Of a stretch of DNA of 64,000 nt, positions 4,068 to 64,000 are shown piece by piece (position 1 is the first letter of the stretch; every line of letters begins with the position of its first letter). Position numbers and translations under genes: made by a program. The DNA is from Candidatus Altimarinota bacterium. GTDB lineage: Bacteria > Patescibacteriota > Gracilibacteria > 1-14-2-50-48-13. The notes beneath the pieces are model-generated. The model was given only the letters and a program-made list of their open reading frames with translations, did no database searches and was not told the DNA's origin. The DNA is taken from positions 256,001-320,000 of the forward strand of contig JBKBWQ010000001.1 of the NCBI GenBank assembly GCA_046314355.1, in the 5' to 3' direction.

Positions 4068-5072
4068 TTACTTTGAAATATAGTAGGCCAGATCTACTAA
4101 ACGGTTAGAATAACCCCACTCATTGTCATACCAGGTGATCACCTTAATAAGATTCGGAGGCATAAAGAAGGTAGAAGGCAGGTCAATAATAGTTGAATTT
4201 TCATTTTTTCTAAAATCCATTGAAACAAGCGGAAGGTCGCTTACAGCCATAATTCCAGACATAGTAGTATTTGCATATTTAGTAAGCAGAGTATTAATCT
4301 CTGTCACATCTTTTGGAGGATTTTTTACAGTACATGTAAAATCACTTAAAGATACTACCGGAGTAGGTACACGTAAAGAAATACCGTCAAGTTTGCCTTC
4401 CAGATCGGGTATCACAGCTGCTACAGATTTTGCAGCACCTGTAGTAGTAGGAATGATCGATTCTGTGGCTGCCCGAGCTCTTCTAAGATCTTTGTGAGGT
4501 GCATCATGCAGTCTTTGGTCCTGCGTAAAGGAATGTACTGTAGTAAGCAGACCGGCTTCAATGCCGTATGCATCATGTAAGACCTTTGCTACTGGAGCGA
4601 GAGAATTTGTTGTACAGCTTGCATTGGATATTATGTTCATCTCAGCTTTATATTCCTTTTCATTCACTCCTAAAACAAATGTAGGCATACTATCTTTTGC
4701 AGGTGCAGAAAGTACCACCTTTTTTGCTCCAGCTTTAATGTGTGCTTCACATCCTTTCATATCCGTAAATACTCCTGTGCATTCAAGCACAATATCCACT
4801 CCTAATGTTTTCCAAGGAAGTACCGCGGGATCTTTCTCTGCAGAGACATGTACTATTTGTGTACCAATAGTTATAGTTTTATCTGTGGATGTAACTTCCT
4901 GAGGATATATTCCATAGAGAGAATCATATTTAAAAAGATGAGCAAGAGTGGCAGAATCAGTGAGATCATTGATCGCCACTAGTTCTAATGTATCCTTATA
5001 TTTGTCCAAAATGATCTTTGCTGCATTTCGTCCAATTCTACCGAATCCGTTGATAGCTACTTTGATTGCCAT
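4068..5072 (-). CDS. gap: Type I glyceraldehyde-3-phosphate dehydrogenase
   Basis: INGFGRIGR NAD-binding motif, catalytic ASCTTN, WYDNEWGYS. Confidence 0.98.
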   Translation of the reverse strand: MAIKVAINGFGRIGRNAAKIILDKYKDTLELVAINDLTDSATLAHLFKYDSLYGIYPQEVTSTDKTITIGTQIVHVSAEKDPAVLPWKTLGVDIVLECTGVFTDMKGCEAHIKAGAKKVVLSAPAKDSMPTFVLGVNEKEYKAEMNIISNASCTTNSLAPVAKVLHDAYGIEAGLLTTVHSFTQDQRLHDAPHKDLRRARAATESIIPTTTGAAKSVAAVIPDLEGKLDGISLRVPTPVVSLSDFTCTVKNPPKDVTEINTLLTKYANTTMSGIMAVSDLPLVSMDFRKNENSTIIDLPSTFFMPPNLIKVITWYDNEWGYSNRLVDLAYYISK

Positions 5073-5306
5073 AGAAAGTAATGAAAAATGTGAATTGATA
5101 TATTATTTTATCATACTTTTCTTGATTTTCGGGAGTATTTTTTTATTATACTGGCGCTTTTCGACTGAAAAAGAGAAGTAAATACAATAGAGACATTGAA
5201 AGGAGTTTTAATGTCTCAAGAAATAAACAAAAATGAAGGCAGAAATGGTCCCAATGCCTAAAGATATACAAAAAATCTTTGTGAGACACTGCTGACAAAG
5301 ATTTTC

Positions 5307-5341
5307 AAAGGAATAATCCATATGTGAATTATTCCTTTTTT
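5307..5341 (+). terminator. Intrinsic terminator-like hairpin
   Basis: aaaggaataat-N10-attattccttt followed by T-tract. Confidence 0.55.
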
Positions 5342-5400
5342 CTAAATTTTCTTGCATTTATTTTTACCGCATGATACATTCTCCCCGCACTTGAAATTCA

Positions 5401-5477
5401 GGGCGATTAGCTCAGTTGGCTAGAGCATCTCGTTTACACCGAGGGGGTCATAGGTTCGAATCCTATATCGCCCACCA
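5401..5477 (+). tRNA. tRNA-Val (anticodon TAC)
   Basis: Cloverleaf: GGGCGAT/ATCGCCC acceptor stem, TT-TAC-AC anticodon loop, GGTTCGAATCC T-arm, encoded CCA. Confidence 0.97.
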
Positions 5478-5688
5478 TCATTTTTTTAAATTTGAATAGT
5501 GGATAGTGAGTACTTAGTAAGTAAGTAGCTCTTTTTTTATTGTAAAATTTTTATAAAGATAAATCATTATTTTGTTTCTGACAAAGAAATATTGTTATTT
5601 CTCATATATATTGAAGTAAATATATGCTTGTTCTTAATGCTGAAAGTGATAATATAATAGATTCCTATTTCATTATTAAAATATAGCT

Positions 5689-6219
5689 ATGACAAATCTA
5701 TTAATTGGTACATTTGCAACTCGAGCTGATGCAGAGGCGGCAGTAAATGAACTTGAAAGTTTAGGGCTAAATCCTAAAGATGTTTCTGTAATTATGAAGG
5801 ATATGGATGAAGCAAAAAGTGTGGCTGAGGGGGCGCCAGTGGCAGACGGTATTGCAACAGGTGCTACTACAGGAGTGCTTTTAGGCGGACTCGCAGGATT
5901 ATTGATAGGTATTGGTGCTATTGCACTACCAGGTATCGGAGGAATAATTGTTGCAGGTCCAATTGCAAGTGCTTTAGGTCTTTCTACCGCAGCTGCTTCT
6001 ACTATCTCAGGAGCACTTACAGGAGGAGCAGCTGGAGGACTTGTAGGTGGTTTAGTAGGATTAGGGCTTCCAGAGGAAGAGGCACAGTACTATGAAGGTA
6101 GAGTACGTGAGGGAGGAATCTTAATAGCAGTACCTACAAGTTTTGGTGAAGGTACTCAGGCAAAAATAATCCTTGAAAAACATAATGCGGAGCAGGTCAG
6201 AGCTATACAGTCTGCTTAA
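5689..6219 (+). CDS. General-stress (YflT-like) glycine-zipper membrane protein
   Basis: N-terminal F.TRADAEAAVNEL, long GxxxG zipper, GLPEEEAQYYEGRVREGGIL. Confidence 0.8.
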   Translation: MTNLLIGTFATRADAEAAVNELESLGLNPKDVSVIMKDMDEAKSVAEGAPVADGIATGATTGVLLGGLAGLLIGIGAIALPGIGGIIVAGPIASALGLSTAAASTISGALTGGAAGGLVGGLVGLGLPEEEAQYYEGRVREGGILIAVPTSFGEGTQAKIILEKHNAEQVRAIQSA

Positions 6220-6236
6220 GTCAGTTATTATTCTAG

Positions 6237-6270
6237 AAAAAAGGTAAATCTACGTAGGTTTACCTTTTTT
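6237..6270 (+). terminator. Intrinsic terminator
   Basis: aaaaaaggtaaatct-acgt-aggtttacctttttt. Confidence 0.8.
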
Positions 6271-6325
6271 CTTTTCTTTCAAAACAAAAAGTGCTTACAT
6301 AAAATATATTACTATTACTCAAAAT

Positions 6326-7462
6326 ATGACTGAAAAATATAAGAATGCCCTTGAACTTCATGAAAAACATCATGGCAAAATGGAAGTAAAAAGCAAAGTT
6401 CCAGTGAGTACAAGAGGGGATCTAGCACTTGCATATACTCCAGGTGTAGCGGATGTGTGCCGTGTAATCGCAGAAGATGCATCTCTTGCAAAGAAATACA
6501 CGCTCAAATCAAATACTATTGCTGTCGTCTCAGACGGTTCTGCTGTACTTGGTCTAGGGAATATTGGAGCAGAAGGAGCTATCCCAGTTATGGAGGGAAA
6601 AGCCATTCTTTTTAAAGAATTTGCAAATGTAGATGCATTTCCTATTTGCCTTCGTACTCAGGATATTGAAGAGATCATAGCAATTGTGAAAAATATTGCT
6701 CCAGTGTTTGGCGGCATCAATTTAGAAGATATAGCAGCTCCAAAATGTTTTGAAATAGAAAAAAGATTAAGAGCAGAACTAGATATTCCAGTATTCCATG
6801 ATGATCAGCATGGCACAGCGGTAGTCGTTCTCGCTGCACTTATCAACGCATTAAAGGTAGCTGGAAAAAATAAAGAAACTGTACATATTGTAATAAATGG
6901 TGCTGGAGCTGCAGGAACAGCAGTTACTGAGCTTTTACTGAAATATGGATTTGAAAATATAACTGTATGCGATTCCCAGGGAGCCATATACAAAGATAGA
7001 AAAAATATTACTGAGGAAAAACTAGATCTCGCGCAAAAGACAAACAAGGATCAAAAATCAGGAACTCTTGCTGATGTTATCGTCGGTCGCGATATTTTTA
7101 TTGGAGTGAGTAAAGGCAATACTCTCACGAAGGATATGGTAAAAAGCATGAATAAAGATCCTATTGTTTTCGCTCTAGCAAATCCTACTCCAGAAATTAT
7201 GCCTCAGGACGCAAAGGAAGCAGGTGCATTTATAGTAGCAACCGGACGTTCAGATTTTCCAAATCAGATTAATAATGTCTTTGTTTTCCCAGGTATTTTC
7301 AGAGGAGCTCTCGATAATAATACCGTGCAGATAACTGATGAGATGCTTGTAAAAGCTGCTGAGAATCTTGCAAATCATGTACAGAATATACATCAAGAGA
7401 ATATTCTTCCTGACTTGTTTGATAAAACAGTAGCTGAGGTTGTAGCGAAAGCAATTCAATAA
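6326..7462 (+). CDS. NAD(P)-dependent malic enzyme (short form)
   Basis: [54 protein letters not shown]. Confidence 0.95.
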
Positions 7463-49536: not shown

Positions 49537-50454
49537 ATGAACTCCAATTTAGAACTTCCAAACACCTCCATTGAAGATCAAGTGTCATTAACACATTCTT
49601 ATTTTTTGTTGGGAATGCTCTTTGAAAAAGTAAGAAATGAACCAATCTACACGCAGGTACATCCATTATTTCTTCTTCACACTGCTTATACTCTTCAAAA
49701 AGAATACAGTGAGGCACCAGAAATATTAAACATCTGGAAATACCTTGTAGGCATAAATATACCTCAACTAAAAGAACTGAAAAAAATTCAGGAGCTGTTT
49801 TGTATAATTGCTGCAATGCAGGATATAAGTCAAAGTGACGGACATATTACGGCGAAGTTCTTAGAAAAATACTTCGCCAATTATCTAGGGAAAAATATAA
49901 GTAAAATTCAGAATATCTCAGTATCCCTTAAAAAGGAAACCCATGAAGTGGTGCTGAGCAAAATTATTTTTGAGATAAATAACCTCGTTTCATCACAAAA
50001 AGTACTTCAAAAATATCCCTTGATAGTGCGTCTGATTTCAAACGCCGCAATCTCAGTCAATGGCTTACTCCCTTATCCTTATCTTAATATAGACTTTTCT
50101 GAAGATCAGGAGCTTGTTGGGATAAGTAATAAAAGTGTTACAAAAGCACTTGAAAAATGTATGAGAGAGTTTGACCAGTTAAAGAACATGCATTCAATGC
50201 ATTTAAAAAGGATTGCAACCTTAGGAAGAGTAAGCGGATCTGCAGAAAAACTCTACACTTATCTTTTGAAAAAACCTGTAGTGACGACTAAAGATGTACA
50301 GTCCATCTTAGGTATTGCAAAACCAAATGCCCTTCTGATGATAGACCGTTTTATTGAAATTGGTATTTTATGCCAGATGAGTACTGGAGAAAGAAACCGT
50401 ATCTATGGTCACTATGATCTACTAAAAATATTTGATCTGAATCAAATAAAATAA
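49537..50454 (+). CDS. Fic-family-derived protein lacking the catalytic motif, with C-terminal winged HTH
   Basis: C-terminal KPVVTTKDVQSILG...GIL...TGERNRIY typical of Fic-HTH proteins; no HPFxxGNGR. Confidence 0.6.
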   Translation: MNSNLELPNTSIEDQVSLTHSYFLLGMLFEKVRNEPIYTQVHPLFLLHTAYTLQKEYSEAPEILNIWKYLVGINIPQLKELKKIQELFCIIAAMQDISQSDGHITAKFLEKYFANYLGKNISKIQNISVSLKKETHEVVLSKIIFEINNLVSSQKVLQKYPLIVRLISNAAISVNGLLPYPYLNIDFSEDQELVGISNKSVTKALEKCMREFDQLKNMHSMHLKRIATLGRVSGSAEKLYTYLLKKPVVTTKDVQSILGIAKPNALLMIDRFIEIGILCQMSTGERNRIYGHYDLLKIFDLNQIK

Positions 50455-53426: not shown

Positions 53427-54968
53427 ATGAAATACGCACTCCTTCTCACAAGTTTCTTCCTAGCTTTTTCTCTTCAGGCAAGCCCCATATTGGCTCAAGA
53501 TATCGCTCCTACAGTATCTACCATTGATCTGCAAAACAGCATATCGCCAATTATTACCGGGAAGTCAGAAATCGAGATTGGTAAGCGTCTCTATCTGGAT
53601 GCTGGAAGCTCCTCAGTACCACAGAATACACCACTACAGTATATATGGACGATTAATGATCAAAGTACACAGGAAGGTAAAGAGACCTTTTATACTTTTG
53701 ATACGCCAGGAGAATATACAATAAGTCTGACAATCAAGAGTGATACGGCATCGAAGACAGTTATGCGAAAAATATTTGTCTATAGAGAGATGGTCTCATT
53801 TCTATACAATGGTCCTCTTGCATCTTTTACGAGCAACATACAATCTGCTCAAGAACTAGCAAAAAATAATGGTATTTTTCTAAATCTCATTCAAGGAGAT
53901 GATGGTAGTCCTATCTTAACAGAAGATGCAGTCTACAGAGCACTTTCAGGAAAGCTTGATTCTGTTAAGAACTCACAAACGCTTATTGCAGGACCGTATC
54001 CTACAGATGTATTGCCAGCACTGAATAAGCTTGGATATGATCAGGATAGTGAAGGCACTCATGTGATAATACTTACAACAAATGAACCAATTTGGTTATT
54101 TAATAATGTTATTGCAAGGTTATCGCGTCTAGTAGATGCAAAAGAATTGATCCTTATTCAGCAGGACCCGTTTGCTGTACTGAACTTCTTTTTACAGAGT
54201 ACTGACATAGAGCATTTTAAACAAAAGTTGCCAGAAAAAGATTATGCAATTATCTCAAAAAATACTTCACCGGGAATGAGATGGGCCTTATTATCTCAGG
54301 GACTGAATAAGGCTATTGAAAATGGGATACCAGCATCAGTACTTTCATTTTTACTGATAGTTCCATTAATTCTTACATGGATTGCTTTTTTCAAACAGGT
54401 AATCGGTATTGAAACATTCGGTCTATTAAAAACACTTATCCTTGTACTTTCCTTCTATATTCTAGGAATTAAGTATGGGAGTTTCATACTACTCTACGTC
54501 ATTCTTATGGGAGTACTTATACGAATAGTACTTTCAAAATTCACGCTTTTTTATATACCAAAAGTAACACTAACACTTTCTTTTGCTACACTAGCCGTAC
54601 TTGGATTAATTATTATCGGCTCATACTTCAATCTTACATTCGGTATAGATACATCTAGCGGACAAAGAGCACTGCTCTCATTAGTACCTATGCTTTTGAT
54701 TGCTTTTCAGGCAGATACACTTTCGTATCATATCTTTACAAAGAATTCCAATTACAAAGAACTGCTGATTCTACTTGCTACATACTTTGAGGTGGTTATT
54801 GCCTTTGGAATAGCCAGGATAGATTATCTTAGATATATACTTTTTGCATTACCTGAACTTATTATTATCGTATTTATACTACAATTCCTTATCTCTCGCT
54901 ACACTGGATTAAGAGCGATAGAAGTATTCCGTTTCAGAGAACTTCTTTTACAAGATCTTGAAGAATAA
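53427..54968 (+). CDS. Secreted PKD-domain plus 7TM membrane protein (7TM type that accompanies RimK-related ATP-grasp ligases)
   Basis: Signal peptide; PKD motifs LDAGSS, YIWT, YTFDTPGEYTISLTI; QVIGIETFG; terminal SRYTGLRAIEVFRFREL. Confidence 0.85.
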   Translation: MKYALLLTSFFLAFSLQASPILAQDIAPTVSTIDLQNSISPIITGKSEIEIGKRLYLDAGSSSVPQNTPLQYIWTINDQSTQEGKETFYTFDTPGEYTISLTIKSDTASKTVMRKIFVYREMVSFLYNGPLASFTSNIQSAQELAKNNGIFLNLIQGDDGSPILTEDAVYRALSGKLDSVKNSQTLIAGPYPTDVLPALNKLGYDQDSEGTHVIILTTNEPIWLFNNVIARLSRLVDAKELILIQQDPFAVLNFFLQSTDIEHFKQKLPEKDYAIISKNTSPGMRWALLSQGLNKAIENGIPASVLSFLLIVPLILTWIAFFKQVIGIETFGLLKTLILVLSFYILGIKYGSFILLYVILMGVLIRIVLSKFTLFYIPKVTLTLSFATLAVLGLIIIGSYFNLTFGIDTSSGQRALLSLVPMLLIAFQADTLSYHIFTKNSNYKELLILLATYFEVVIAFGIARIDYLRYILFALPELIIIVFILQFLISRYTGLRAIEVFRFRELLLQDLEE

Positions 54969-54971
54969 TCT

Positions 54972-57410
54972 ATGGCAAATTTTTCTGACATATTGGGTAT
55001 TAACGCTAGACATCTTCTTTTTATAAAAAAATATAATCCGGATGATGCTATTATATTTGCCGATAATAAACTTAAGACAAAGAGGTTTCTTGAAGCAAGA
55101 GGTGTCCCGGTACCAAAACTTGCAGGCACAATAAGGAATTTTACTGAGCTTGATAATTTTCCATTACCAACATTACCAGGACAAATAGTAATCAAGCCTA
55201 ATGCAAGTTCAGGAGGTCAGGGGATTATTGTACTTGGCGAAAAAAATTCTACAGGCTGGAAAAAAAGTAGCGGTGAAGATATTTCGCTGCAGGAGGTAAG
55301 AAGACATATTCATGATATCCTTTCTGGTGCGTATTCAAAAAATGGACAGAGCGATATCTGTCTTATTGAAAAGAGAATCATCAGTCATGAAAAGTTAGCG
55401 GCTATTTCCTATAAGGGACTTCCTGATATACGAATCATCGTATTCAATATGGTTCCTGTAATGGCTATGCTCCGTCTCCCTACAATTCTTTCCGACGGAA
55501 AGGCAAACATGCATCAGGGAGGTATTGGAGCAGGGATAGATATTGCGAAAGGAGAAATTACATACCTTTCACAATTTAATAAAATCATCGATGACATCCC
55601 AGGAATTGGTGATGTACGCGGATATAAGATTCCTTATTGGGATAAAATTCTCCAGATGGCGGTAAAAAGCCAGATGATTACCGGAGTGGGATACTTGGGT
55701 GTGGATATCGCACTTGATAGAAATGGACCTATGGTTCTTGAAATGAATGCGCGGGCAGGTCTAGGCATCCAGTTAGCTAATATGGCACCGCTTCGGAAAA
55801 GATTAAATATGGTTGAGAAACTTAAAGTAAAATCCATAGAAAAGGGAATCAGAATTGCAAAAGATCTTTTCGGAAGACAAATAGATCGTGATATTGAGCA
55901 GGTTTCAGGAAAAACAGTTATCGGAACGAGAGAAATAGTTACTCTTTATTTTAAGGAAGGACCAAAAGAAATACTTGGTAAAATTAACCCCTCAATCCAG
56001 GAAAATTATATTGATCGCCAGCTTTTTGAAGAGCTTATTGCAAAAAAACCCTATCTACAACAAGGTGATGACTCAATTCGGCTAAAATATAAACTCACTG
56101 ATGAGAAAACGAAAAGTATTTTTAAACCTTTAGATTTAGGAGATAAAAAGTATCAATTAATTTTGGGAAGAAAAGAACTTAAGAGCCTTTTGATAGACCC
56201 GTATAAATATAAGTTCAATGAGATTCCATATAAACCCGCATTAAATTTATTATTACCTGAAAAAACAGAGGAAGCTGAGCGTAACGCACTTATCAAAAAA
56301 TGGTTTGAAGTAGATCAGTCGCTTGCACGTATTGAAAGAAATTTACAGGTAAAATTTTCTCTTTTTCCACTCAATTATCAAACTGAGATGGAAAAATTCA
56401 TCGAATGTGAGGGACAATATAATCCATTTTTCATCTATAAAAATGACCCCGAAAGCTACGAACATATAAAAAATGATCTTGATGCAGTACATATTAATAC
56501 TCAGGAGTTTCAGGGACATATCTTTGCAGCAAAGAAGAACGAACTATTTACAAAACTTGAAATGTTTCACTGTATGGCAAAGGATGCTCATGAATTTACC
56601 AGATTATCTGAGGAACTCTATATCACATGTGATCCTGTTCTTTTTGAAGCGGCAGAAGCAGAAATTGTACGGAAAAAAGAAACTTTAGGATTTTTGATCC
56701 CGAAAGAGGAAACTTATGGATTAGAAGAAATTAAAAATGAGATTACTGCACTTTTTAAAAAATATAAACTTACTAAATGGAATATAAAAGTTCGTAATCA
56801 CGCTAGTTCACGTATAAGCGTAAGCAAATCAAAAAAACGCATTCTCTATCTAGCATCTGATATAGAAATAGAAAAACACCTCCTCCCACAAGTACTTGCA
56901 CATGAAGTAGAAACGCATGTACTACGTCTGGAAAATGCTCTTCAACAGCCATATGAGATATTTAGAACAGGTTTTGCAAACTATCTTGAAACAGAAGAAG
57001 GACTTGCTATCTATAACCAAGCATGCAAAAGCGACGTGGTATCACTAAAGGATTTCACGGCAGCAATCAATTATGTAAAAACATATAATATTCTGAATAA
57101 AAGTTTTGAAGAAGCTGCACATGGATATCTGCAGTCAAGAAATAAGGCGGAACTACTCAATTATGAAATGTATCAGAGTATATTTAAAAGTATTTTAAGA
57201 GTGAAGAGAGGACTTGGAGATACATCGCATCATGGTGGATATGCAAAAGATCTTGTATACTTTGCTGGATATAGAAAAATTGTGGACTTCGTTGAGTCAG
57301 GAGGAAATATAAAAAATTTGTATTTTGGAAAAATATCTCTACAATCTCTAGATGATGTTACCTTCATGCAGGAGCTCAAAGAACCGAAAATATTACCTGA
57401 TTTCTATTAA
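54972..57410 (+). CDS. Tri-domain fusion: alpha-L-glutamate-ligase-like ATP-grasp, inactive RimK-associated aspartic-protease domain, DUF1704 (MATCAP-like) metallocarboxypeptidase
   Basis: ILGINAR, DNKLKTK, VIKPNASSGGQGI, GLPDIRII, ANMHQGG, LEMNARAGL; middle VIGTRE...KINPS...ILGRKEL...IDP; AHEVETH, ETEEGLA, RVKRG, AKDLVY. Confidence 0.85.
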   Translation: MANFSDILGINARHLLFIKKYNPDDAIIFADNKLKTKRFLEARGVPVPKLAGTIRNFTELDNFPLPTLPGQIVIKPNASSGGQGIIVLGEKNSTGWKKSSGEDISLQEVRRHIHDILSGAYSKNGQSDICLIEKRIISHEKLAAISYKGLPDIRIIVFNMVPVMAMLRLPTILSDGKANMHQGGIGAGIDIAKGEITYLSQFNKIIDDIPGIGDVRGYKIPYWDKILQMAVKSQMITGVGYLGVDIALDRNGPMVLEMNARAGLGIQLANMAPLRKRLNMVEKLKVKSIEKGIRIAKDLFGRQIDRDIEQVSGKTVIGTREIVTLYFKEGPKEILGKINPSIQENYIDRQLFEELIAKKPYLQQGDDSIRLKYKLTDEKTKSIFKPLDLGDKKYQLILGRKELKSLLIDPYKYKFNEIPYKPALNLLLPEKTEEAERNALIKKWFEVDQSLARIERNLQVKFSLFPLNYQTEMEKFIECEGQYNPFFIYKNDPESYEHIKNDLDAVHINTQEFQGHIFAAKKNELFTKLEMFHCMAKDAHEFTRLSEELYITCDPVLFEAAEAEIVRKKETLGFLIPKEETYGLEEIKNEITALFKKYKLTKWNIKVRNHASSRISVSKSKKRILYLASDIEIEKHLLPQVLAHEVETHVLRLENALQQPYEIFRTGFANYLETEEGLAIYNQACKSDVVSLKDFTAAINYVKTYNILNKSFEEAAHGYLQSRNKAELLNYEMYQSIFKSILRVKRGLGDTSHHGGYAKDLVYFAGYRKIVDFVESGGNIKNLYFGKISLQSLDDVTFMQELKEPKILPDFY

Positions 57411-57418
57411 CTATTCCT

Positions 57419-58081
57419 ATGATCATTTTCGATAATGTTACAAAAAAATTTGGGAGTAGAGCAATACTAGATTCTTTCAGTCTTCAGATCCAGGCCGCAG
57501 AGTTTGTTGCTATAATGGGACACTCTGGAGCAGGTAAATCTACAATGATCAATCTGCTGATAGGTCATCAGCGTCCCACAAGTGGTCAAATAATGATTGA
57601 CGGGGTACATATTGAAAACATGGATTTTAATATGCGACAGCTTTACCGCCGAAAGATTGGTATTGTCTTTCAGGATTATAAACTCTTACCAAAAAAGACA
57701 GTGTATGAGAATGTATCCTTTGCTATGGAAGTATGCGGAAATACTGATGAGGAAATACAAAAGAGAGTACCTGAAATACTCCACCAGGTTGGTCTTCTAG
57801 CAAGACAAGAACAGTATCCTGATGAACTCTCAGGTGGTGAACAGCAAAGATGTGCTATAGCTCGTGCATTAGTACATAATCCAAATCTTTTAATTGCAGA
57901 TGAGCCGACAGGAAATCTTGATCAGGAAACAGCAAAAGATATTATTAAGCTTTTGAGTGATATTAACAAAAACGGCACAACTATCATTATGACTACACAT
58001 AATCCAAAGCTTCTAGAGAACCTTACGTATAGACTTGTAGAACTGCATGAGGGGAAGCTGAAAGAATCAACGCATCATTAA
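57419..58081 (+). CDS. ftsE: FtsE-type ABC ATPase
   Basis: GHSGAGKST, IGIVFQDYKLL, LSGGEQQR, IADEPTGNLD; no ftsX follows. Confidence 0.85.
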   Translation: MIIFDNVTKKFGSRAILDSFSLQIQAAEFVAIMGHSGAGKSTMINLLIGHQRPTSGQIMIDGVHIENMDFNMRQLYRRKIGIVFQDYKLLPKKTVYENVSFAMEVCGNTDEEIQKRVPEILHQVGLLARQEQYPDELSGGEQQRCAIARALVHNPNLLIADEPTGNLDQETAKDIIKLLSDINKNGTTIIMTTHNPKLLENLTYRLVELHEGKLKESTHH

Positions 58082-59412
58082 TACTCCGAAATACTATTTA
58101 TAAACTGTAGTACTTTCGTGTGATTTGGATTAGTATAATCGTATTTCCCAATAGTTAAGTCAGGGAAGGGAAAATGGTTATGATAGTATTCTTCGTAATA
58201 ACTCCATGTAGAGATATTGCCCAGAGTATAAATCATATCTTTAGTAAAACAAAACCCTTCGGAAAGCCCTGAAGTACCTCTAAAGGTTCTTGTGGTTCTT
58301 GTCCAGGCAAGATCTACTGCTGTTTGCTTTGCAGTTTCAAGAGCAACACCATGAAGTAGTTCAAAATAGAAATAGAAATCATAGGAAAAATTAAAAATCT
58401 CTCGAAAATTTCTTTTTTTTCCAACCATTCCTTTTGTAAAAGCGATTGAAAGGTATCTATCAATTCCAAATAATAGAGCACAGTCTTCATTAAAAACCTG
58501 TTCCCATACTGTAGTAGGTCCTTCAGATACTTTTTCAAAATTGGCGAATCCTTTACCTAAAAGCATTATTCTCGAATTCAGTCCTTTAATTGCCTGCTGA
58601 ACATGGTATCCAAGTTCATGAATAAGCAATTCCGAAAGCCGGTGAAAATCTACAGTTTTCGTAGTAGGAATCACTACCTCTTTAAGGTTATGGTCTACTG
58701 CAATACTATCAAGACTTTTCTCACGCAGTACGATTGAGTAGAGATTTTTTGTATCTATAAGAGATCTATACTCTTCAAATACGGCAGCAATCTCTTCTGC
58801 AGTGAATATATCTTTCTCCTTATATTTTTGAAGAATATTTAATGCATCCTGAAATTGTGTGTAACAATTATTTTTTGTCCAAAGCATACACTCTTGGGAC
58901 GGAAGGAAAGGATTTTGTTCTTTTCCGCTTTTTTCTAAATATTGTAATAATTTTTCAGAACCATGATTTGCCTCTTTCTTAGATATGAATTCATTTAAAT
59001 TGTCCATCAGGTGCATGGTAGTTTCTCTTTCAGGAGCTCCATAGAGCTTTTCCGACAAGATCTGTACTTTTTCTTCATTGCCTTCGGAGACGGCATTTAA
59101 AAAACTTATTATGATCTGTTGTTCTTCTATTTTATTACAATATATTTCTTTTATTATTGAATGATATGACGATTCTTCAATGGATTTGCTAAAATCTGTA
59201 AGTTTTAATGCTGTTTTTGATAAATGCTCTTTATCAATAAATGGGTAAAGAAAAGTAGGATTTTCAATCTTTCCAGCCAGAAACAGTTGTTTCTGATTTT
59301 TCCAGTAGTCTGCATCACTTTCTAAAAGTGACAGAATACGAATATCTGCAACTTCTTTTTGAAATCGCAGAAATAGTTCATGATCAAGAGCAGTGACATT
59401 TTTACTAGGCAT
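58078..59412 (-). CDS. DUF1704/MATCAP-like metallocarboxypeptidase, paralog A
   Basis: NPTFLYP, IHELGYH, VSEG, RTFRGT, FTKDMIY, GKYD. Confidence 0.8.
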   Translation of the reverse strand: MPSKNVTALDHELFLRFQKEVADIRILSLLESDADYWKNQKQLFLAGKIENPTFLYPFIDKEHLSKTALKLTDFSKSIEESSYHSIIKEIYCNKIEEQQIIISFLNAVSEGNEEKVQILSEKLYGAPERETTMHLMDNLNEFISKKEANHGSEKLLQYLEKSGKEQNPFLPSQECMLWTKNNCYTQFQDALNILQKYKEKDIFTAEEIAAVFEEYRSLIDTKNLYSIVLREKSLDSIAVDHNLKEVVIPTTKTVDFHRLSELLIHELGYHVQQAIKGLNSRIMLLGKGFANFEKVSEGPTTVWEQVFNEDCALLFGIDRYLSIAFTKGMVGKKRNFREIFNFSYDFYFYFELLHGVALETAKQTAVDLAWTRTTRTFRGTSGLSEGFCFTKDMIYTLGNISTWSYYEEYYHNHFPFPDLTIGKYDYTNPNHTKVLQFINSISEY

Positions 59413-59475
59413 TCATCTATGGTTATACTTACTATGATTTAAGATAGCCTGATATGTGTAACAGTCAAGAATACG

Positions 59476-59507
59476 AAAAAAAAGGAGATATTTGAAATAT
59501 CTCCTTT
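59476..59507 (-). terminator. Intrinsic terminator between the DUF1704 paralogs
   Basis: aaaggagatatt/aatatctccttt with T-tract on the minus strand. Confidence 0.8.
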
Positions 59508-59521
59508 AATACTTTTTTTAT

Positions 59522-60895
59522 TTATTCTTCTTCTTCACCGTCACAGTCTGCAAAAAAATCATATTTTGCTTTTGGTACAATATTTGTAATCTCATTTATT
59601 ACTTTCATATGATCCATGTTTGTTGGGTCATATTTACCTATAAATAGATTAGGTAAATCCTGACCTAATTCATACATTTTGGTCATATATTGCCATATAC
59701 GGATGTTTCCATCCCTATAGCAAATATCCTTTGTAAATGCATTACCTGCGGAACAGTCAGTTCCACGAAACGTACGTATACATCTGTTCCACGCATCATT
59801 ATTAGCTTTCTCTTCTGATTCAGAAAGTGATTTACCTTTCTTAGTTGCTTCATACTGATATAAAGTTTTCAGAATGTTAAACACCTGTCTAAAATCTCTT
59901 TCAACGCCATCTAATCCTAAAGCAGCGCCGATGGAAAGATAAGCTTCGGGACGACCGAAGTCTTTCACTTTTCCATCATAACTCTGTTCCCAGACAGTGG
60001 TGAGGCCTTCTTCACCTTGAAGATAACCACTTAATCCTAAACCAAGTAATTTAAGGTTAGAACCTTCACCATTTTCACGACGTTGGACATGAGTACCAAT
60101 CTCATGACCAATGAGTTTTTCTAATTTTTCCCCAGTTACCTCACGGCTAGCAGGAATATTAACTGTCTTTTTTTCCTGTGATACTGATATTGCAGTTTTA
60201 CTGCTTTCAGTAATCTCAATTTTAAACTCACCGCTAGCACCAACATTGTTAAGAGCTTTTTCAAAAAATTCCTTTATCTCAGGAGCGTTATACTTAGATT
60301 TAGAATCAATTATAATGCCATGAAACAAACTTTTAAACTGTTTCATGAATTGCTCTTTCGTCCAAGCCACAACTTCTTTAGATGGAAGGGAAATATTAAA
60401 TGCATGATTCCCTGCCTGTGGTAAAATCTCAAGCAGTTTTTTAGCTGCAATTCCGATATCTCCATCTACGGAGATATTTGCTTCTGCATCCTTTCTTATT
60501 TCAGATAAAGTGTAGAAGTAAATATCAGTATCCGGTATACCGTTTACATCTGCATTAAATGCTTCAAATAAATTCATATCTCCATCTAGTACGGCATCCA
60601 GCAAAGAAAGTTCATTGAGTTTTTCGATAATCTTTACTGTGTAAGCTTCTCTGTATACTTCAGGTAAATCTGAAGTATCAATTGCTTTCAGTGCATTAGC
60701 TTTAGATTCAATATTCTCTCGTGTAATTAATGGATAATCCAATCTAGGATTTTCAATTTTATAAGAGAGAAATAAAGCTTTCTGTTCATCTCTATAGGCC
60801 TTATCACCATCTAAAGATTCGTAAGCTTCAAATGAACCTGCCGAAGCAAAACTTGCATAAATAGCTAAATCAACAGCTGAATTATTTTGTACCAT
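59522..60895 (-). CDS. DUF1704/MATCAP-like metallocarboxypeptidase, paralog B
   Basis: NPRLDYP, GHEIGTH, GEEGL, RTFRGT, FTKDICY, GKYDP; strong AGGAGG SD; ends ...DGEEEE. Confidence 0.85.
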   Translation of the reverse strand: MVQNNSAVDLAIYASFASAGSFEAYESLDGDKAYRDEQKALFLSYKIENPRLDYPLITRENIESKANALKAIDTSDLPEVYREAYTVKIIEKLNELSLLDAVLDGDMNLFEAFNADVNGIPDTDIYFYTLSEIRKDAEANISVDGDIGIAAKKLLEILPQAGNHAFNISLPSKEVVAWTKEQFMKQFKSLFHGIIIDSKSKYNAPEIKEFFEKALNNVGASGEFKIEITESSKTAISVSQEKKTVNIPASREVTGEKLEKLIGHEIGTHVQRRENGEGSNLKLLGLGLSGYLQGEEGLTTVWEQSYDGKVKDFGRPEAYLSIGAALGLDGVERDFRQVFNILKTLYQYEATKKGKSLSESEEKANNDAWNRCIRTFRGTDCSAGNAFTKDICYRDGNIRIWQYMTKMYELGQDLPNLFIGKYDPTNMDHMKVINEITNIVPKAKYDFFADCDGEEEE

Positions 60896-60980
60896 TGTGG
60901 TACCTCCTAGTTTTTAAATATCAATAACAACAAGCAATTTATACAATATATTTTAATAAAGTCAATATTACTATTACAAT

Positions 60981-61014
60981 AAAAAAGAGTACCTCCTAAG
61001 AAGTACTCTTTTTT
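60981..61014 (-). terminator. Intrinsic terminator
   Basis: Minus strand aaaaagagtacttc-ttag-gaggtactctttttt. Confidence 0.8.
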
Positions 61015-61021
61015 ATATCTA

Positions 61022-61288
61022 TTATTCAGCTTTTGCCTTAGTAGCTTTCTCAGCCTTTACTTCTTTAGTAATCTTAAACTCTTCCTTCATTTTTGCAGTA
61101 TTGAAACCATACTTCTGCATTCGAAGCTCAATCTTTGCTACTGCATTGCTAAGCCATTTAGTATGACCTTCTTTCTGGATTCTTTCTCCAAGTTTCTTAA
61201 GAATTTTTACACTAGCATCCATTTTAGAAGTATTGCTAGGACCTTTCTTATTTACCTTATAAATTTGGCGGGCTTTACCTGATTGCAC
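61022..61288 (-). CDS. Small highly basic protein (88 aa from GTG 61288, or 66 aa from ATG 61222)
   Basis: Lys/Arg-rich, AAG/GAG-rich codons like fusA and rpsA, own terminator; family not recognised. Confidence 0.65.
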   Translation of the reverse strand: MQSGKARQIYKVNKKGPSNTSKMDASVKILKKLGERIQKEGHTKWLSNAVAKIELRMQKYGFNTAKMKEEFKITKEVKAEKATKAKAE

Positions 61289-61426
61289 GGTGTCGTTCAG
61301 TGAAAATATAAAAATTCGTCGGAACAAATGTGAGGAAACTATACTAAAAGAAACAGCTAAGCGCAAGAGAATTTGAGTAGAATACTTATAATTATCTAAA
61401 GAAATGATAAGTATTAGTAAGGGAAT

Positions 61427-62455
61427 CTAGAAGTTGAATTTATTTTTAAGAATTACGTCAACGGTACTATCGTTTACGCTTTCAATAGGAGTCTGGATCC
61501 CTGGAGTGGCGTTTAATTCAATAATCTTAATTTCATTTATAGATTTACAGTTCTTTAAATCAGCATGAAGTACATCAATTCCGACAATCTCCAATCCCAT
61601 ACGTATTGCCAGATCTTCAAATACTTTAGCGATCTTAGGATCAATTTTATCTGTAATTATTTTTTCCGTTCCGCCTACAGAATTATTACATTTATAAGAA
61701 AGAAATATTTTTTTTCCTTTAGGCAAAATACTCTCGCGAGTAACTCCTTGCTCTGAGAGAAGAATATCTAACTCTTCGGTCAGAAGAACTTTATTATAAA
61801 ATTCAGTATACAAAACAGCCCCTCTATTTGGGTCATCATTGAGCGTTTCTATTAATTCATTGATGGTTTTCTTCCCATCACCTATAACATAAGGCTTAAT
61901 TCTATGGGTGACCCAGTGACATTTCCCAAACAGAATAAAGAATCTGTAGTCTTCTCCTTCAATAAATTCCTGAATAAGAAAATTTTTTTTATTTCTTGTA
62001 AAACTCACGGCATCTGCGATAAATAATCTTAATACCTCTAAGGTCTGTGTATTATTCCATACATGGACTCCGTTCCCGTGGGCACTATCTACGGGTTTGA
62101 TAACTATCGTCGTTGGTGATGCTGCAATAATCTGTTCGACTTCATCGAGTGAATCGATACTATAGATATTACTCTGAATTGTAGGGTATTTCCAATGATT
62201 AAGTACCTGATAGGTAAGTAACTTATCATTGCATATTTTACTCATTGAGGACGAATTATCCAAACTACATCCTTTAAATATAACTTCTTTTCCATCCTTA
62301 GAGAGAATATAAGTACTTTTTTTCTCGTCAATCATCTGAAGAGTATATCCTGTCGCCTGCGCTCTTTTAATAATAGTGGCTGGGCTGATCGTCAAATAGT
62401 TCATATTCATCTTGTATTCAAAATAATTAATTGAGTGAATCAAATCAAGATTCAT
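61427..62455 (-). CDS. Stand-alone ATP-grasp ligase (cyanophycin-synthetase/GshF ATP-grasp-like)
   Basis: ICNDKLLT, VIKPVDSAHGNGV, IQEFIEGEDYR, VIGDGKKTINELI...N.DPNRG, GIDV, IIELNATPG; start may be 62410. Confidence 0.88.
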   Translation of the reverse strand: MNLDLIHSINYFEYKMNMNYLTISPATIIKRAQATGYTLQMIDEKKSTYILSKDGKEVIFKGCSLDNSSSMSKICNDKLLTYQVLNHWKYPTIQSNIYSIDSLDEVEQIIAASPTTIVIKPVDSAHGNGVHVWNNTQTLEVLRLFIADAVSFTRNKKNFLIQEFIEGEDYRFFILFGKCHWVTHRIKPYVIGDGKKTINELIETLNDDPNRGAVLYTEFYNKVLLTEELDILLSEQGVTRESILPKGKKIFLSYKCNNSVGGTEKIITDKIDPKIAKVFEDLAIRMGLEIVGIDVLHADLKNCKSINEIKIIELNATPGIQTPIESVNDSTVDVILKNKFNF

Positions 62456-62804: not shown

Positions 62805-64000
62805 TTACACTTTTGGATCAAGTATTTCAATATCAATATTCTCCTTGATAGTAGGGAGAGTTTTCTGCCATGCGGGAGATAAAGAGACATTTACTTTTTC
62901 CACCTCAGGAAGATTTTGTATAAATTTTTCTGCATCTTCACGTTTGATACCTGTTACATTTGATTGGATGGTCTTTATAAGAGTTTCATTATCTCTATCG
63001 AAACTGAAGGTTACAAGCCCATTCATTCGAGCAGTAATCTTAATATCAGAATTCTGCGAAGGGAAGATATTTACAAACTGAAGAGACTGAGGGTCCATGC
63101 TCAGAAGTTTCTCTCTAGCAGTGAGTTTGTGATTTACAAAATAGTCCTGCATGATCTTTTTGAGATCATCCTGATTGACATAGTAGGCTTTAGCTCTCAT
63201 TTTTCCTTGTACTTCAAAGCTATCAATACGCTGATTGAGAATATCTTTTGGTACACCAACTGATACTAGCTCTGATTGTACAAAACGGTCATCATGAATC
63301 TGGAAGATCTTATATGTTTCATCCTCGCCATGTACTTTTTTTAGTTCACTTTGAAGGTATTCTGGAGCCATATTTTTCAACTCCTGAATAATGTTTTTAT
63401 TTGCCTCTTCCACATCTTCTTTTACAACAAAACGCTCTACGTTTGTAACACCGCCAGTCATTGGAGATGTACTCTCAGCATAGATAAGCTTCTGATTTGT
63501 GGAAGAAAGTCCCGGGAAAGTAAATTTCATTGGTCCAATATTACCTCTTTCACCCATAAACTGATTATTTGCATCTCTTTCTCTTGCCTCAACTTCTACT
63601 TCGAGTGTGCCAGGAGTATCGCCTTTTGCTTCAGGAACTGATACAAACTTCTTCGTAAGATACACAAGTCCTTCATTTGTCTGAATACGGCTGTTTGTAA
63701 CTAGCGGCCAAGGCTTTGTAGATCTGTTAAATATTTTTATCTTACCTTTTGCATTTTCTCCTTTAAATACCCCTCCTGTTGCCGGCTGCTTAAAGGTTTT
63801 TTCATAGATAACCTCTATCTGCTGCATATGGACTTGTTTATCAGCAAGTGACGTAGGAGCTCCTGTAAGCGTTACATTCGTCTCTACACTCGTAGCATTG
63901 AGCTTAGGTATGATCGTAATCTTAGCATCAGGAAGACCAAAGAATGCAATGGTGAAGAGAATAAGCACACTAAAAAACAATATAGTCATATATGCTTTCT
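62805..64000 (-). CDS. Membrane-anchored baseplate-J-like domain protein (5' end probably outside the window)
   Basis: Frame open to the window edge; TM helix, then AKGKIKIFN, PGTLEVEVEA, GERGNIG, PGL, MTGG, LSPAW...LP. Confidence 0.75.
   Translation of the reverse strand, partial: KAYMTILFFSVLILFTIAFFGLPDAKITIIPKLNATSVETNVTLTGAPTSLADKQVHMQQIEVIYEKTFKQPATGGVFKGENAKGKIKIFNRSTKPWPLVTNSRIQTNEGLVYLTKKFVSVPEAKGDTPGTLEVEVEARERDANNQFMGERGNIGPMKFTFPGLSSTNQKLIYAESTSPMTGGVTNVERFVVKEDVEEANKNIIQELKNMAPEYLQSELKKVHGEDETYKIFQIHDDRFVQSELVSVGVPKDILNQRIDSFEVQGKMRAKAYYVNQDDLKKIMQDYFVNHKLTAREKLLSMDPQSLQFVNIFPSQNSDIKITARMNGLVTFSFDRDNETLIKTIQSNVTGIKREDAEKFIQNLPEVEKVNVSLSPAWQKTLPTIKENIDIEILDPKV

Follow-up and report, generated by a model that had tools for sequence, protein, structure and literature searches.

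The 64,000-nucleotide stretch of DNA analysed here (the window) comes from Candidatus Altimarinota bacterium (contig JBKBWQ010000001.1, positions 256,001 to 320,000), and at 53427-62455 it carries a locus whose conserved core is two genes, one for a seven-transmembrane (7TM) partner protein of 513 amino acids (aa) (53427-54968, + strand) and one for an 812-aa fusion enzyme (54972-57410, + strand), which starts 3 bp past the 7TM stop codon. The fusion carries an amino-acid ligase domain of the ATP-grasp type, a retropepsin-like middle domain and a MATCAP-like zinc (Zn) peptidase domain; its membrane partner ends in two glutamates (-EE). Our preferred reading, drawn by analogy and held tentatively, at a probability of roughly 45%, is that the ligase would extend the cytoplasmic -EE tail of the 7TM partner and the MATCAP domain would trim it. 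The conserved -EE tail is a candidate C-terminal substrate that is new here; it was absent from the first-pass annotation of this DNA, which had proposed a peptide-tag writer/eraser system spread over 9 kb.

Searches against Pfam and NCBIfam confirmed all the domains named in that annotation (PKD, 7TM, two ATP-grasp and three HExxxH domains), and the coordinates of the open reading frames (ORFs) bore out its description of a PKD-7TM gene lying 3 bp upstream of an ATP-grasp::protease-like::HExxxH fusion. The RimK/RloC-like ligase domain of the fusion (residues 15-283; 55014-55820, + strand) matched ATPgrasp_ST (PF14397) at 2.6e-67, with 227.4 bits against a cut-off of 31.4, and the fusion gene gave the sole above-cut-off match to this family in the whole genome. 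The domain also matched TIGR02291 (3.9e-82; 275.8 bits, under the equivalog cut-off of 314.2), and its relationship to RimK was visible in matches to TIGR00768 (2.3e-11; 43.6 bits against a cut-off of 143.4) and PF08443 (1.4e-4). Residues K75, D245, E257, N259 and R261 and the G82/G84 loop, Mg/ATP residues among them, are invariant across 32 orthologs.

MATCAP/TMCP enzymes combine an HExxxH motif with an EEG motif, which provides the third metal ligand, and act on tubulin by trimming its acidic C-terminal tails, as described in excerpts of PMC10499314. The third domain of the fusion (residues 474-807; 56391-57392, + strand) belongs to this MATCAP/DUF1704 (‘QEGLA’) family (PF08014; 1.9e-24, 86.8 bits against a gathering cut-off of 27). 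Its translation contains the motifs HEVETH (56901-56918, + strand), EEG and KDLVY, and residues H644, E645, H649, E676, K745 and Y763, which include the metal ligands, do not vary across the 32 orthologs. Compared with solved structures, the fusion-family profile matched the MATCAP chain 7z5g at 2.3e-27. Two further genes of the locus encode paralogs of this domain that also exceed the PF08014 cut-off: paralog 1 (444 aa; 58078-59412, - strand; 3.2e-16, 59.7 bits), with the motifs HELGYH, SEG and KDMIY, and paralog 2 (457 aa; 59522-60895, - strand; 2.6e-24, 86.3 bits), with HEIGTH, EEG and KDICY. The two are 33% identical to each other (3e-63). Paralog 2 alone matched 7z5g at 1.5e-5, with the motifs aligned, and a sequence search with paralog 1 alone gave no solved-structure match. 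The ‘QEGLA’ model TIGR02421 was matched by the fusion at 1e-28, the scores of the three domains (100.7, 54.1 and 81.4 bits for the fusion and paralogs 1 and 2, respectively) being far under its cut-off of 338.65. Judged by sequence, all three HExxxH domains are members of the MATCAP family, as had been proposed together with the EG and KDxxY motifs that they share.

The middle domain of the fusion (residues 285-447; 55824-56312, + strand) was identified by alignment and by AlphaFold2 (AF2) modelling with Foldseek; in the window's protein it has no Pfam match of its own. In alignment A2 (the window's sequence and 30 relatives) the two-domain relatives, which lack the peptidase, read AKIDTGA...IIGRRDLKGFLVDP, and 13 of the 31 aligned domains matched PF05618, the RimB/RloA retropepsin family (‘Zn_protease’), at best with 5.4e-12; a profile search of the genome found this family nowhere else. 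The AF2 model of the window's domain (predicted local distance difference test score, pLDDT, 85.6) was closest in Foldseek to the Pseudomonas proteins RloA2 (9g59, 4.9e-5) and RloA (9g58, 1.2e-4), followed by Ddi1 and retroviral proteases. The modelled domain has a retropepsin fold, so the protease-like region of the first-pass annotation is real. The catalytic Asp-Thr-Gly of retropepsins reads Asn-Pro-Ser in the window, and the protease therefore appears to be dead. The D-T/S-G signature was kept in all 14 two-domain forms, and among 99 triple fusions it was kept in 13 and lost in 86. The middle domain is probably a dead protease retained as a binding or dimerising module.

The 7TM partner matched the Pfam families PKD_4 (7.1e-12) and 7TM_transglut (2.8e-16). 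Its parts follow in the order signal peptide, PKD domain (residues ~43-112), alpha/beta domain (~121-280), seven transmembrane helices (~303-491) and C-terminal helix. The NCBIfam RloB model NF052267 covers residues 308-507 only (7e-10; 38.2 bits against a cut-off of 900). With the AF2 model of the protein (pLDDT 86.1), the best Foldseek matches were collagenase PKD domains (6.9e-6); no convincing Foldseek match was obtained for the alpha/beta domain at 121-280, the matches of which have root-mean-square deviations of 9-12 Å. Pfam, NCBIfam and Foldseek found no transglutaminase-like ectodomain in this protein, and its ectodomain is composed of the PKD and alpha/beta domains instead. Because a signal peptide and an outside ectodomain precede seven helices, the model places the C-terminal tail on the cytoplasmic side, where a helix of the form GLRxxExxRFRE leads to the extreme C-terminus ...QDLEE. 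In one family, f43 (loci L154, L157 and L158), the 7TM partner is only 221-226 aa long and consists of the transmembrane module alone, without the ectodomain; in these loci the ligase-retropepsin gene is followed by two genes for ligases related to cyanophycin synthetase (CphA-like; ~325 and ~564 aa), and a MATCAP-like gene lies on the opposite strand ~1-1.5 kb further on.

The 7TM protein of the window ends in ...RFRELLLQDLEE, and its last two Glu codons (GAA GAA; 54960-54965, + strand) mark the proposed acceptor or product end. We surveyed 106 distinct partner C-termini. The -EE end was present in 77 of the 87 partners of triple fusions (3 others ended in a single E and 7 differently), in none of the 13 partners of two-domain forms (1 single E, 12 other), and in 5 of the 6 partners that had no called ligase ORF because of a contig end (0 single E, 1 other). 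The residues ahead of it differ among partners (HIEE, LQEE, HAEE, DLEE, SREE and others), and the whole-protein identity of the partners to the window's copy is 22-38%. As a baseline, 15 of the 1434 ORFs of at least 120 aa in the genome end in EE; the 7TM partner and MATCAP paralog 2 are among them.

A Shine-Dalgarno sequence of the downstream ligase gene was considered as a source of the EE codons and rejected. At adjacent 7TM/ligase pairs these codons are mostly GAA GAA (93 GAA against 13 GAG), and the EE end is kept where 26-1693 nt separate the 7TM stop codon from the start of the ligase gene, the ratio of GAA to GAG there being 25:21. It is kept, moreover, in two genomes that use translation table 25, in which the 7TM gene is downstream of the ligase gene (L034) or ~4 kb away from it (L035). 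As EE persists where the ligase gene is distant or rearranged, the two residues are selected at the protein level and not as a ribosome-binding site. The argument stands on the long-term conservation of these last two residues, rather than on the counts. A complex prediction for the entire fusion and the 35 C-terminal residues of its partner scored 0.18 (mark 0.32) and was used neither for nor against binding. MATCAP paralog 2 also has an acidic C-terminus (...DCDGEEEE), which its relatives in L164-L166, G033 and G021 lack; the same chemistry could act on this end too, either as a second acceptor or as a self-substrate.

The distribution of the system was followed in two sets of genomes: 41 of the same class, including the window's own (40 relatives; 20 loci inspected for neighbours), and 301 sampled across Patescibacteria, from which 14 loci were fetched. 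A single near-full-length match to the fusion was present in 26 of the 41 same-class genomes, a ligase homolog at E<=1e-10 in 98 of the 301, and at least 589 related loci in the genome collection. The core pair recurs through Gracilibacteria and Peregrinibacteria. The 7TM gene adjoins the ligase gene in 11 of the 20 same-class loci and is nearby in 2 more (the table-25 genomes); it adjoins the ligase gene in 13 of the 14 loci of other Patescibacteria, the 14th of which begins at a contig end. Five of the fusion orthologs (G024, G036, G013, G030 and G022) contain 3 to 43 in-frame TGA codons that are read through under table 25, and the window is open under table 11, so the class mixes standard-code and TGA-recoded lineages.

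Three architectures could be distinguished: the triple fusion, a ligase joined to an active retropepsin (~430-465 aa), and a ligase-retropepsin (~470-510 aa) accompanied by a separate MATCAP-like gene. This separate gene (360-390 aa) was adjacent to or near the ligase-retropepsin gene in 6 of the 14 loci of other Patescibacteria. Domains that are fused here and encoded by separate neighbouring genes elsewhere (a Rosetta-stone pattern) suggest that ligase and peptidase work together, and we regard this gene organization as strong evidence for a functional link between the two. That part of the earlier proposal of one writer/eraser system held; the 9 kb did not prove to be a conserved unit.

The remaining components of the proposed system are the two stand-alone MATCAP-like paralogs and a second ATP-grasp ligase (342 aa; 61427-62455, - strand). 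The latter matched TIGR02068 over positions 141-449 of 862 (1.5e-51; 175.4 bits against a cut-off of 850) and NF002688 in the C-terminal half of GshF (5.9e-43). A true cyanophycin synthetase was rejected for this protein, since only the G-domain part of TIGR02068 is covered and the score falls far below 850; by its profile matches it is an ATP-grasp protein like the cyanophycin-synthetase G domain or the C-terminal half of GshF.

Synteny across Patescibacteria separates these three genes from the core. No stand-alone MATCAP-like paralog was found beside the fusion in the 20 same-class loci, and the otherwise colinear locus of a genome of the same family (G002; h394-h114-FtsE-fusion-7TM-DnaB-LAP) lacks both paralogs and the CphA-like ligase. 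Strong stand-alone MATCAP relatives occur in 3 of the 40 relatives, in two of which (G033 and G021) no gene of the system is near. In distant lineages such genes do recur beside the core. In family f64 (L164-L166) a gene like that of paralog 2 is convergent to the triple fusion, with a CphA-like ligase gene adjacent in one locus. CphA-like ligase relatives are present in 9 of the 40 relatives, standing beside the core in G022 and G013, and their genes accompany the core in 6 of the 14 loci of other Patescibacteria, with two copies in four of these. Absent from the near relative yet recurring elsewhere, the accessory genes appear to be optional and to have joined the core repeatedly; the two paralogs and the CphA-like ligase are accessory, not fixed members. 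The expanded eraser set of the first-pass annotation was thus not upheld as a conserved unit, the more so as ftsE and a small ORF interrupt it. In the window itself, a profile search placed every PF08014 match of the 1.69-Mb genome, three in number, within ~4 kb, and the only ATPgrasp_ST match above the cut-off is here too; their clustering is not a matter of chance. The G+C content is 0.33-0.34 at 58001-62000, the stretch with accessory genes, and ~0.33-0.42 in the other 2-kb bins of the window; the lower value fits later acquisition as a weak signal. Between the paralogs, on the - strand, a hairpin with a 12-bp stem and a T run (59481-59507) resembles a terminator, which suggests that they are transcribed separately. 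No RNA data set is listed as containing the stretch, whereas one DNA run, which may be its source, does contain it.

In the ORF listing, seven ORFs occupy 53427-62455, at the coordinates given in the first-pass annotation. On the + strand, a compact run after dnaB comprises the genes for the membrane protein and the fusion and then ftsE (57419-58081; TIGR02673, 2.6e-79), which is not a part of the system. It is separated from the fusion gene by 8 bp and shares 4 bp with the convergent gene of paralog 1. The next gene is not ftsX-like, and only G001 and G002, both of the same family, have ftsE behind the fusion. The - strand genes, convergent on ftsE, are a 394-aa ORF (62805-63989), the 342-aa ligase gene, a small ORF (61022-61366) and the genes of paralogs 2 and 1. 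Neither the 394-aa ORF nor the small one matched a family, and the small ORF is not considered a part of the system; the TTG listed as its start codon may lie upstream of the true one. Both are also neighbours of the locus in G002 (6e-121 and 7e-15, respectively). PADLOC matched none of the system's proteins to a defence model, and an anti-phage defence role was therefore rejected. Further upstream, a 305-aa ORF (49537-50454, + strand) without a Pfam or NCBIfam match resembles PADLOC SoFic over its last 100 residues (1.2e-11).

We propose that the cytoplasmic three-domain enzyme would dock on its 7TM membrane partner. The ATP-grasp domain could then, at the expense of ATP, attach one amino acid or several, likeliest glutamate, to the free carboxyl end of the -EE tail, and the MATCAP-like Zn-carboxypeptidase domain of the same polypeptide would remove the added residues, so that the length or identity of the tail may serve as a reversible mark. 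The retropepsin domain, without its catalytic aspartate, might act as a scaffold for binding the tail or for dimerisation, comparable to the binding of RimK by RimB, and the extra MATCAP-like proteins and the CphA-like ligase would be optional, widening the range of residues added or trimmed. Physiologically, the analogy of the Rlo operon points to a possible role in adaptation of the envelope or to osmotic conditions. What we infer comprises the substrate, the identity of the added residue, the reversibility and this role. A further step, which we think rather unlikely, is a prokaryotic ‘tail code’, in which the state of the tail, extended and trimmed cyclically, would relay what the PKD/alpha-beta ectodomain of the receptor-like 7TM protein senses.

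Several observations weigh against tail modification. On a quick ligase-domain tree, EE tails are strongly clustered and need only a handful of changes, so that one or a few events may underlie the association of EE with the triple fusion. The pairing of ligase and 7TM genes is retained without EE in two-domain relatives (0 of 13), and the triple fusions of family f64 also have partners without an EE tail, so this pairing needs no EE acceptor. Seven of the 20 same-class loci yielded no 7TM gene in the ~9 kb around the fusion. Finally, the score of the ligase under the TIGR02291 cut-off means that its amino-acid specificity is not given by the family match.

Pairing without EE tails would be expected if the product were a free oligo- or poly-anionic peptide (e.g. 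poly-alpha-glutamate, or a mixed peptide made with the CphA-like ligase), which the 7TM protein would export or regulate. The peptidases (the active retropepsin in the two-domain forms, the MATCAP-like domains here) would limit or recycle it, and the EE tail would be no more than a primer or a mimic of the product for docking. Excerpts of PMC11957051 lend this some weight: RimK also produces free poly-alpha-glutamate, and in P. aeruginosa the loss of rloB or rloC rescues a mutant that lacks the three RloA peptidases, which fits a harmful product needing degradation. The one or two CphA-like ligase genes that accompany the core in 6 of the 14 loci point in the same direction, as does the row of GshB-like, FGase-like and QEGLA genes in Allomuricauda sp. 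(locus L128), together with the induction of neighbouring GshB and QEGLA genes of Photobacterium, 38-fold and 27-fold, respectively, at low salt (excerpts of PMC10308900). However, a free peptide leaves unexplained why EE is conserved among deeply diverged partners whose Glu codons have changed synonymously. The 7TM_transglut module is not known to have a transporter fold or transporter activity, and a cytoplasmic peptidase fused to the ligase suits editing more than extracellular degradation. We consider such a product possible but doubtful; if the tail is the primer, it and the tail modification that we prefer become one and the same.

The relationship of the ligase to RimK, and the standing of RimK/RimB as the best-studied relative, would also allow the enzyme to modify ribosomal protein S6 or another soluble protein, with the 7TM protein as a mere regulator or anchor. 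The S6 of this genome ends in ...PESEA, not in EE, which makes it an unlikely target, and S6 was rejected as such; among the long ORFs the few with EE ends include the 7TM partner and paralog 2, and the strict gene pairing is with 7TM, not with rpsF. A soluble target is thus very improbable. As to the extent of the system, it could be confined to the 7TM-fusion pair, the paralogs and the CphA-like ligase acting elsewhere and lying near by accident or through separate insertion. The colinear G002 locus without them, the paralog 2-like genes of G033 and G021 without system neighbours, the slightly lower G+C content at 58-62 kb and the terminator-like hairpin agree with this. It accords poorly with the paralog 2-like genes convergent to the fusion in three f64 loci (with the CphA-like gene adjacent in one), with the CphA-like ligases beside the core in the 6 loci of other Patescibacteria and in G022 and G013, and with the occurrence of the genome's three PF08014 genes all together; we regard so narrow a system as somewhat unlikely.

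If such a tail code exists, it would correspond in bacteria to the MATCAP side of the tubulin tyrosination/glutamylation cycle, of which it might even be the evolutionary origin, and Rlo-type 7TM/ATP-grasp systems as well as bacterial DUF1704 proteins would gain their first molecular function. Writer/eraser logic of this kind would prove older than tubulin if a bacterial ligase and a MATCAP domain together act on an -EE end. To our knowledge, no activity has been assigned to the bacterial DUF1704 ‘QEGLA’ proteins, and here they are physically tied to an amino-acid ligase. Together with the conserved -EE tail, the fusion gives the field of Rlo- and RimK-related enzymes a concrete candidate substrate. 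Patescibacteria have very small genomes and are largely uncultivated; that nearly a third of the sampled genomes (98 of 301) keep a ligase homolog points to an important function at their cell envelope. Our literature search found no bacterial ATP-grasp/DUF1704 system, no such fusion and no EE-tailed partner; the amidoligase survey of Iyer et al. 2009, which defined several of the Pfam families concerned and lay outside that search, may already cover gene contexts that connect ATP-grasp, 7TM, aspartyl protease and DUF1704.

Among known systems, RloABC of Pseudomonas comprises the same three module types: RloA, a secreted retropepsin; RloB, an inactive transglutaminase joined to a 7TM module; and RloC, an ATP-grasp ligase (excerpts of PMC11957051). 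The 7TM half of our partner protein matches the RloB model, the ligase matches TIGR02291, although under its equivalog cut-off, and the retropepsin is structurally nearest to RloA2 and RloA. In contrast to RloA, which is separate, secreted and active, the retropepsin lies inside a cytoplasmic fusion and has no Asp-Thr-Gly; unlike RloB, the partner has a PKD and alpha/beta ectodomain and ends in -EE; and a MATCAP-like peptidase is added. According to the same excerpts, 96% of RloB matches are in Proteobacteria, whereas the host here is a patescibacterium, and rloB and rloC of Pseudomonas influence biofilm, cell shape and the tolerance of osmotic stress and of antibiotics (PMC11957051). The locus is therefore not a member of RloABC as defined, though it is built of the same module types.

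In bacterial QEGLA (TIGR02421/DUF1704) clusters a DUF1704 peptidase gene likewise stands beside a gene for an ATP-grasp ligase. The Allomuricauda sp. stretch mentioned above (locus L128) contains, at 4156-7173, an apparent operon for a GshB-like ATP-grasp protein, an FGase-family amidohydrolase and a canonical QEGLA/MATCAP protein (355.8 bits), with a dicarboxylate symporter gene upstream. Such clusters differ from our locus in their GshB-type ligase, and the Allomuricauda stretch has no 7TM or retropepsin gene.

The Rim system offers another parallel. Ribosomal protein S6 of E. coli ends in Glu-Glu. RimK attaches glutamate C-terminally to RpsF and is itself bound and regulated by RimB (excerpts of PMC11957051). 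Both there and here an ATP-grasp ligase is paired with a retropepsin, RimB counteracting RimK, and the acceptor, which in our case is only proposed, is a Glu-rich protein C-terminus. Unlike Rim, which has no 7TM partner, the present system includes one; the S6 of its host lacks an EE end, and its ligase is only distantly RimK-like.

The tyrosination/detyrosination and (de)glutamylation cycle of tubulin is a further analogue of the proposed reaction. The ligases TTL and TTLL have an ATP-grasp fold, and detyrosinated alpha-tubulin ends in -EE. The cycle sets these ligases against MATCAP1/TMCP1 and TMCP2, which have the peptidase family PF08014 in common with our locus, and the eukaryotic enzymes act on an acidic tail (excerpts of PMC10499314). 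The bacterial system differs in that its proposed substrate is a membrane protein, its ligase is RimK-like and not TTL-like, and the putative writer and eraser reside on one polypeptide.

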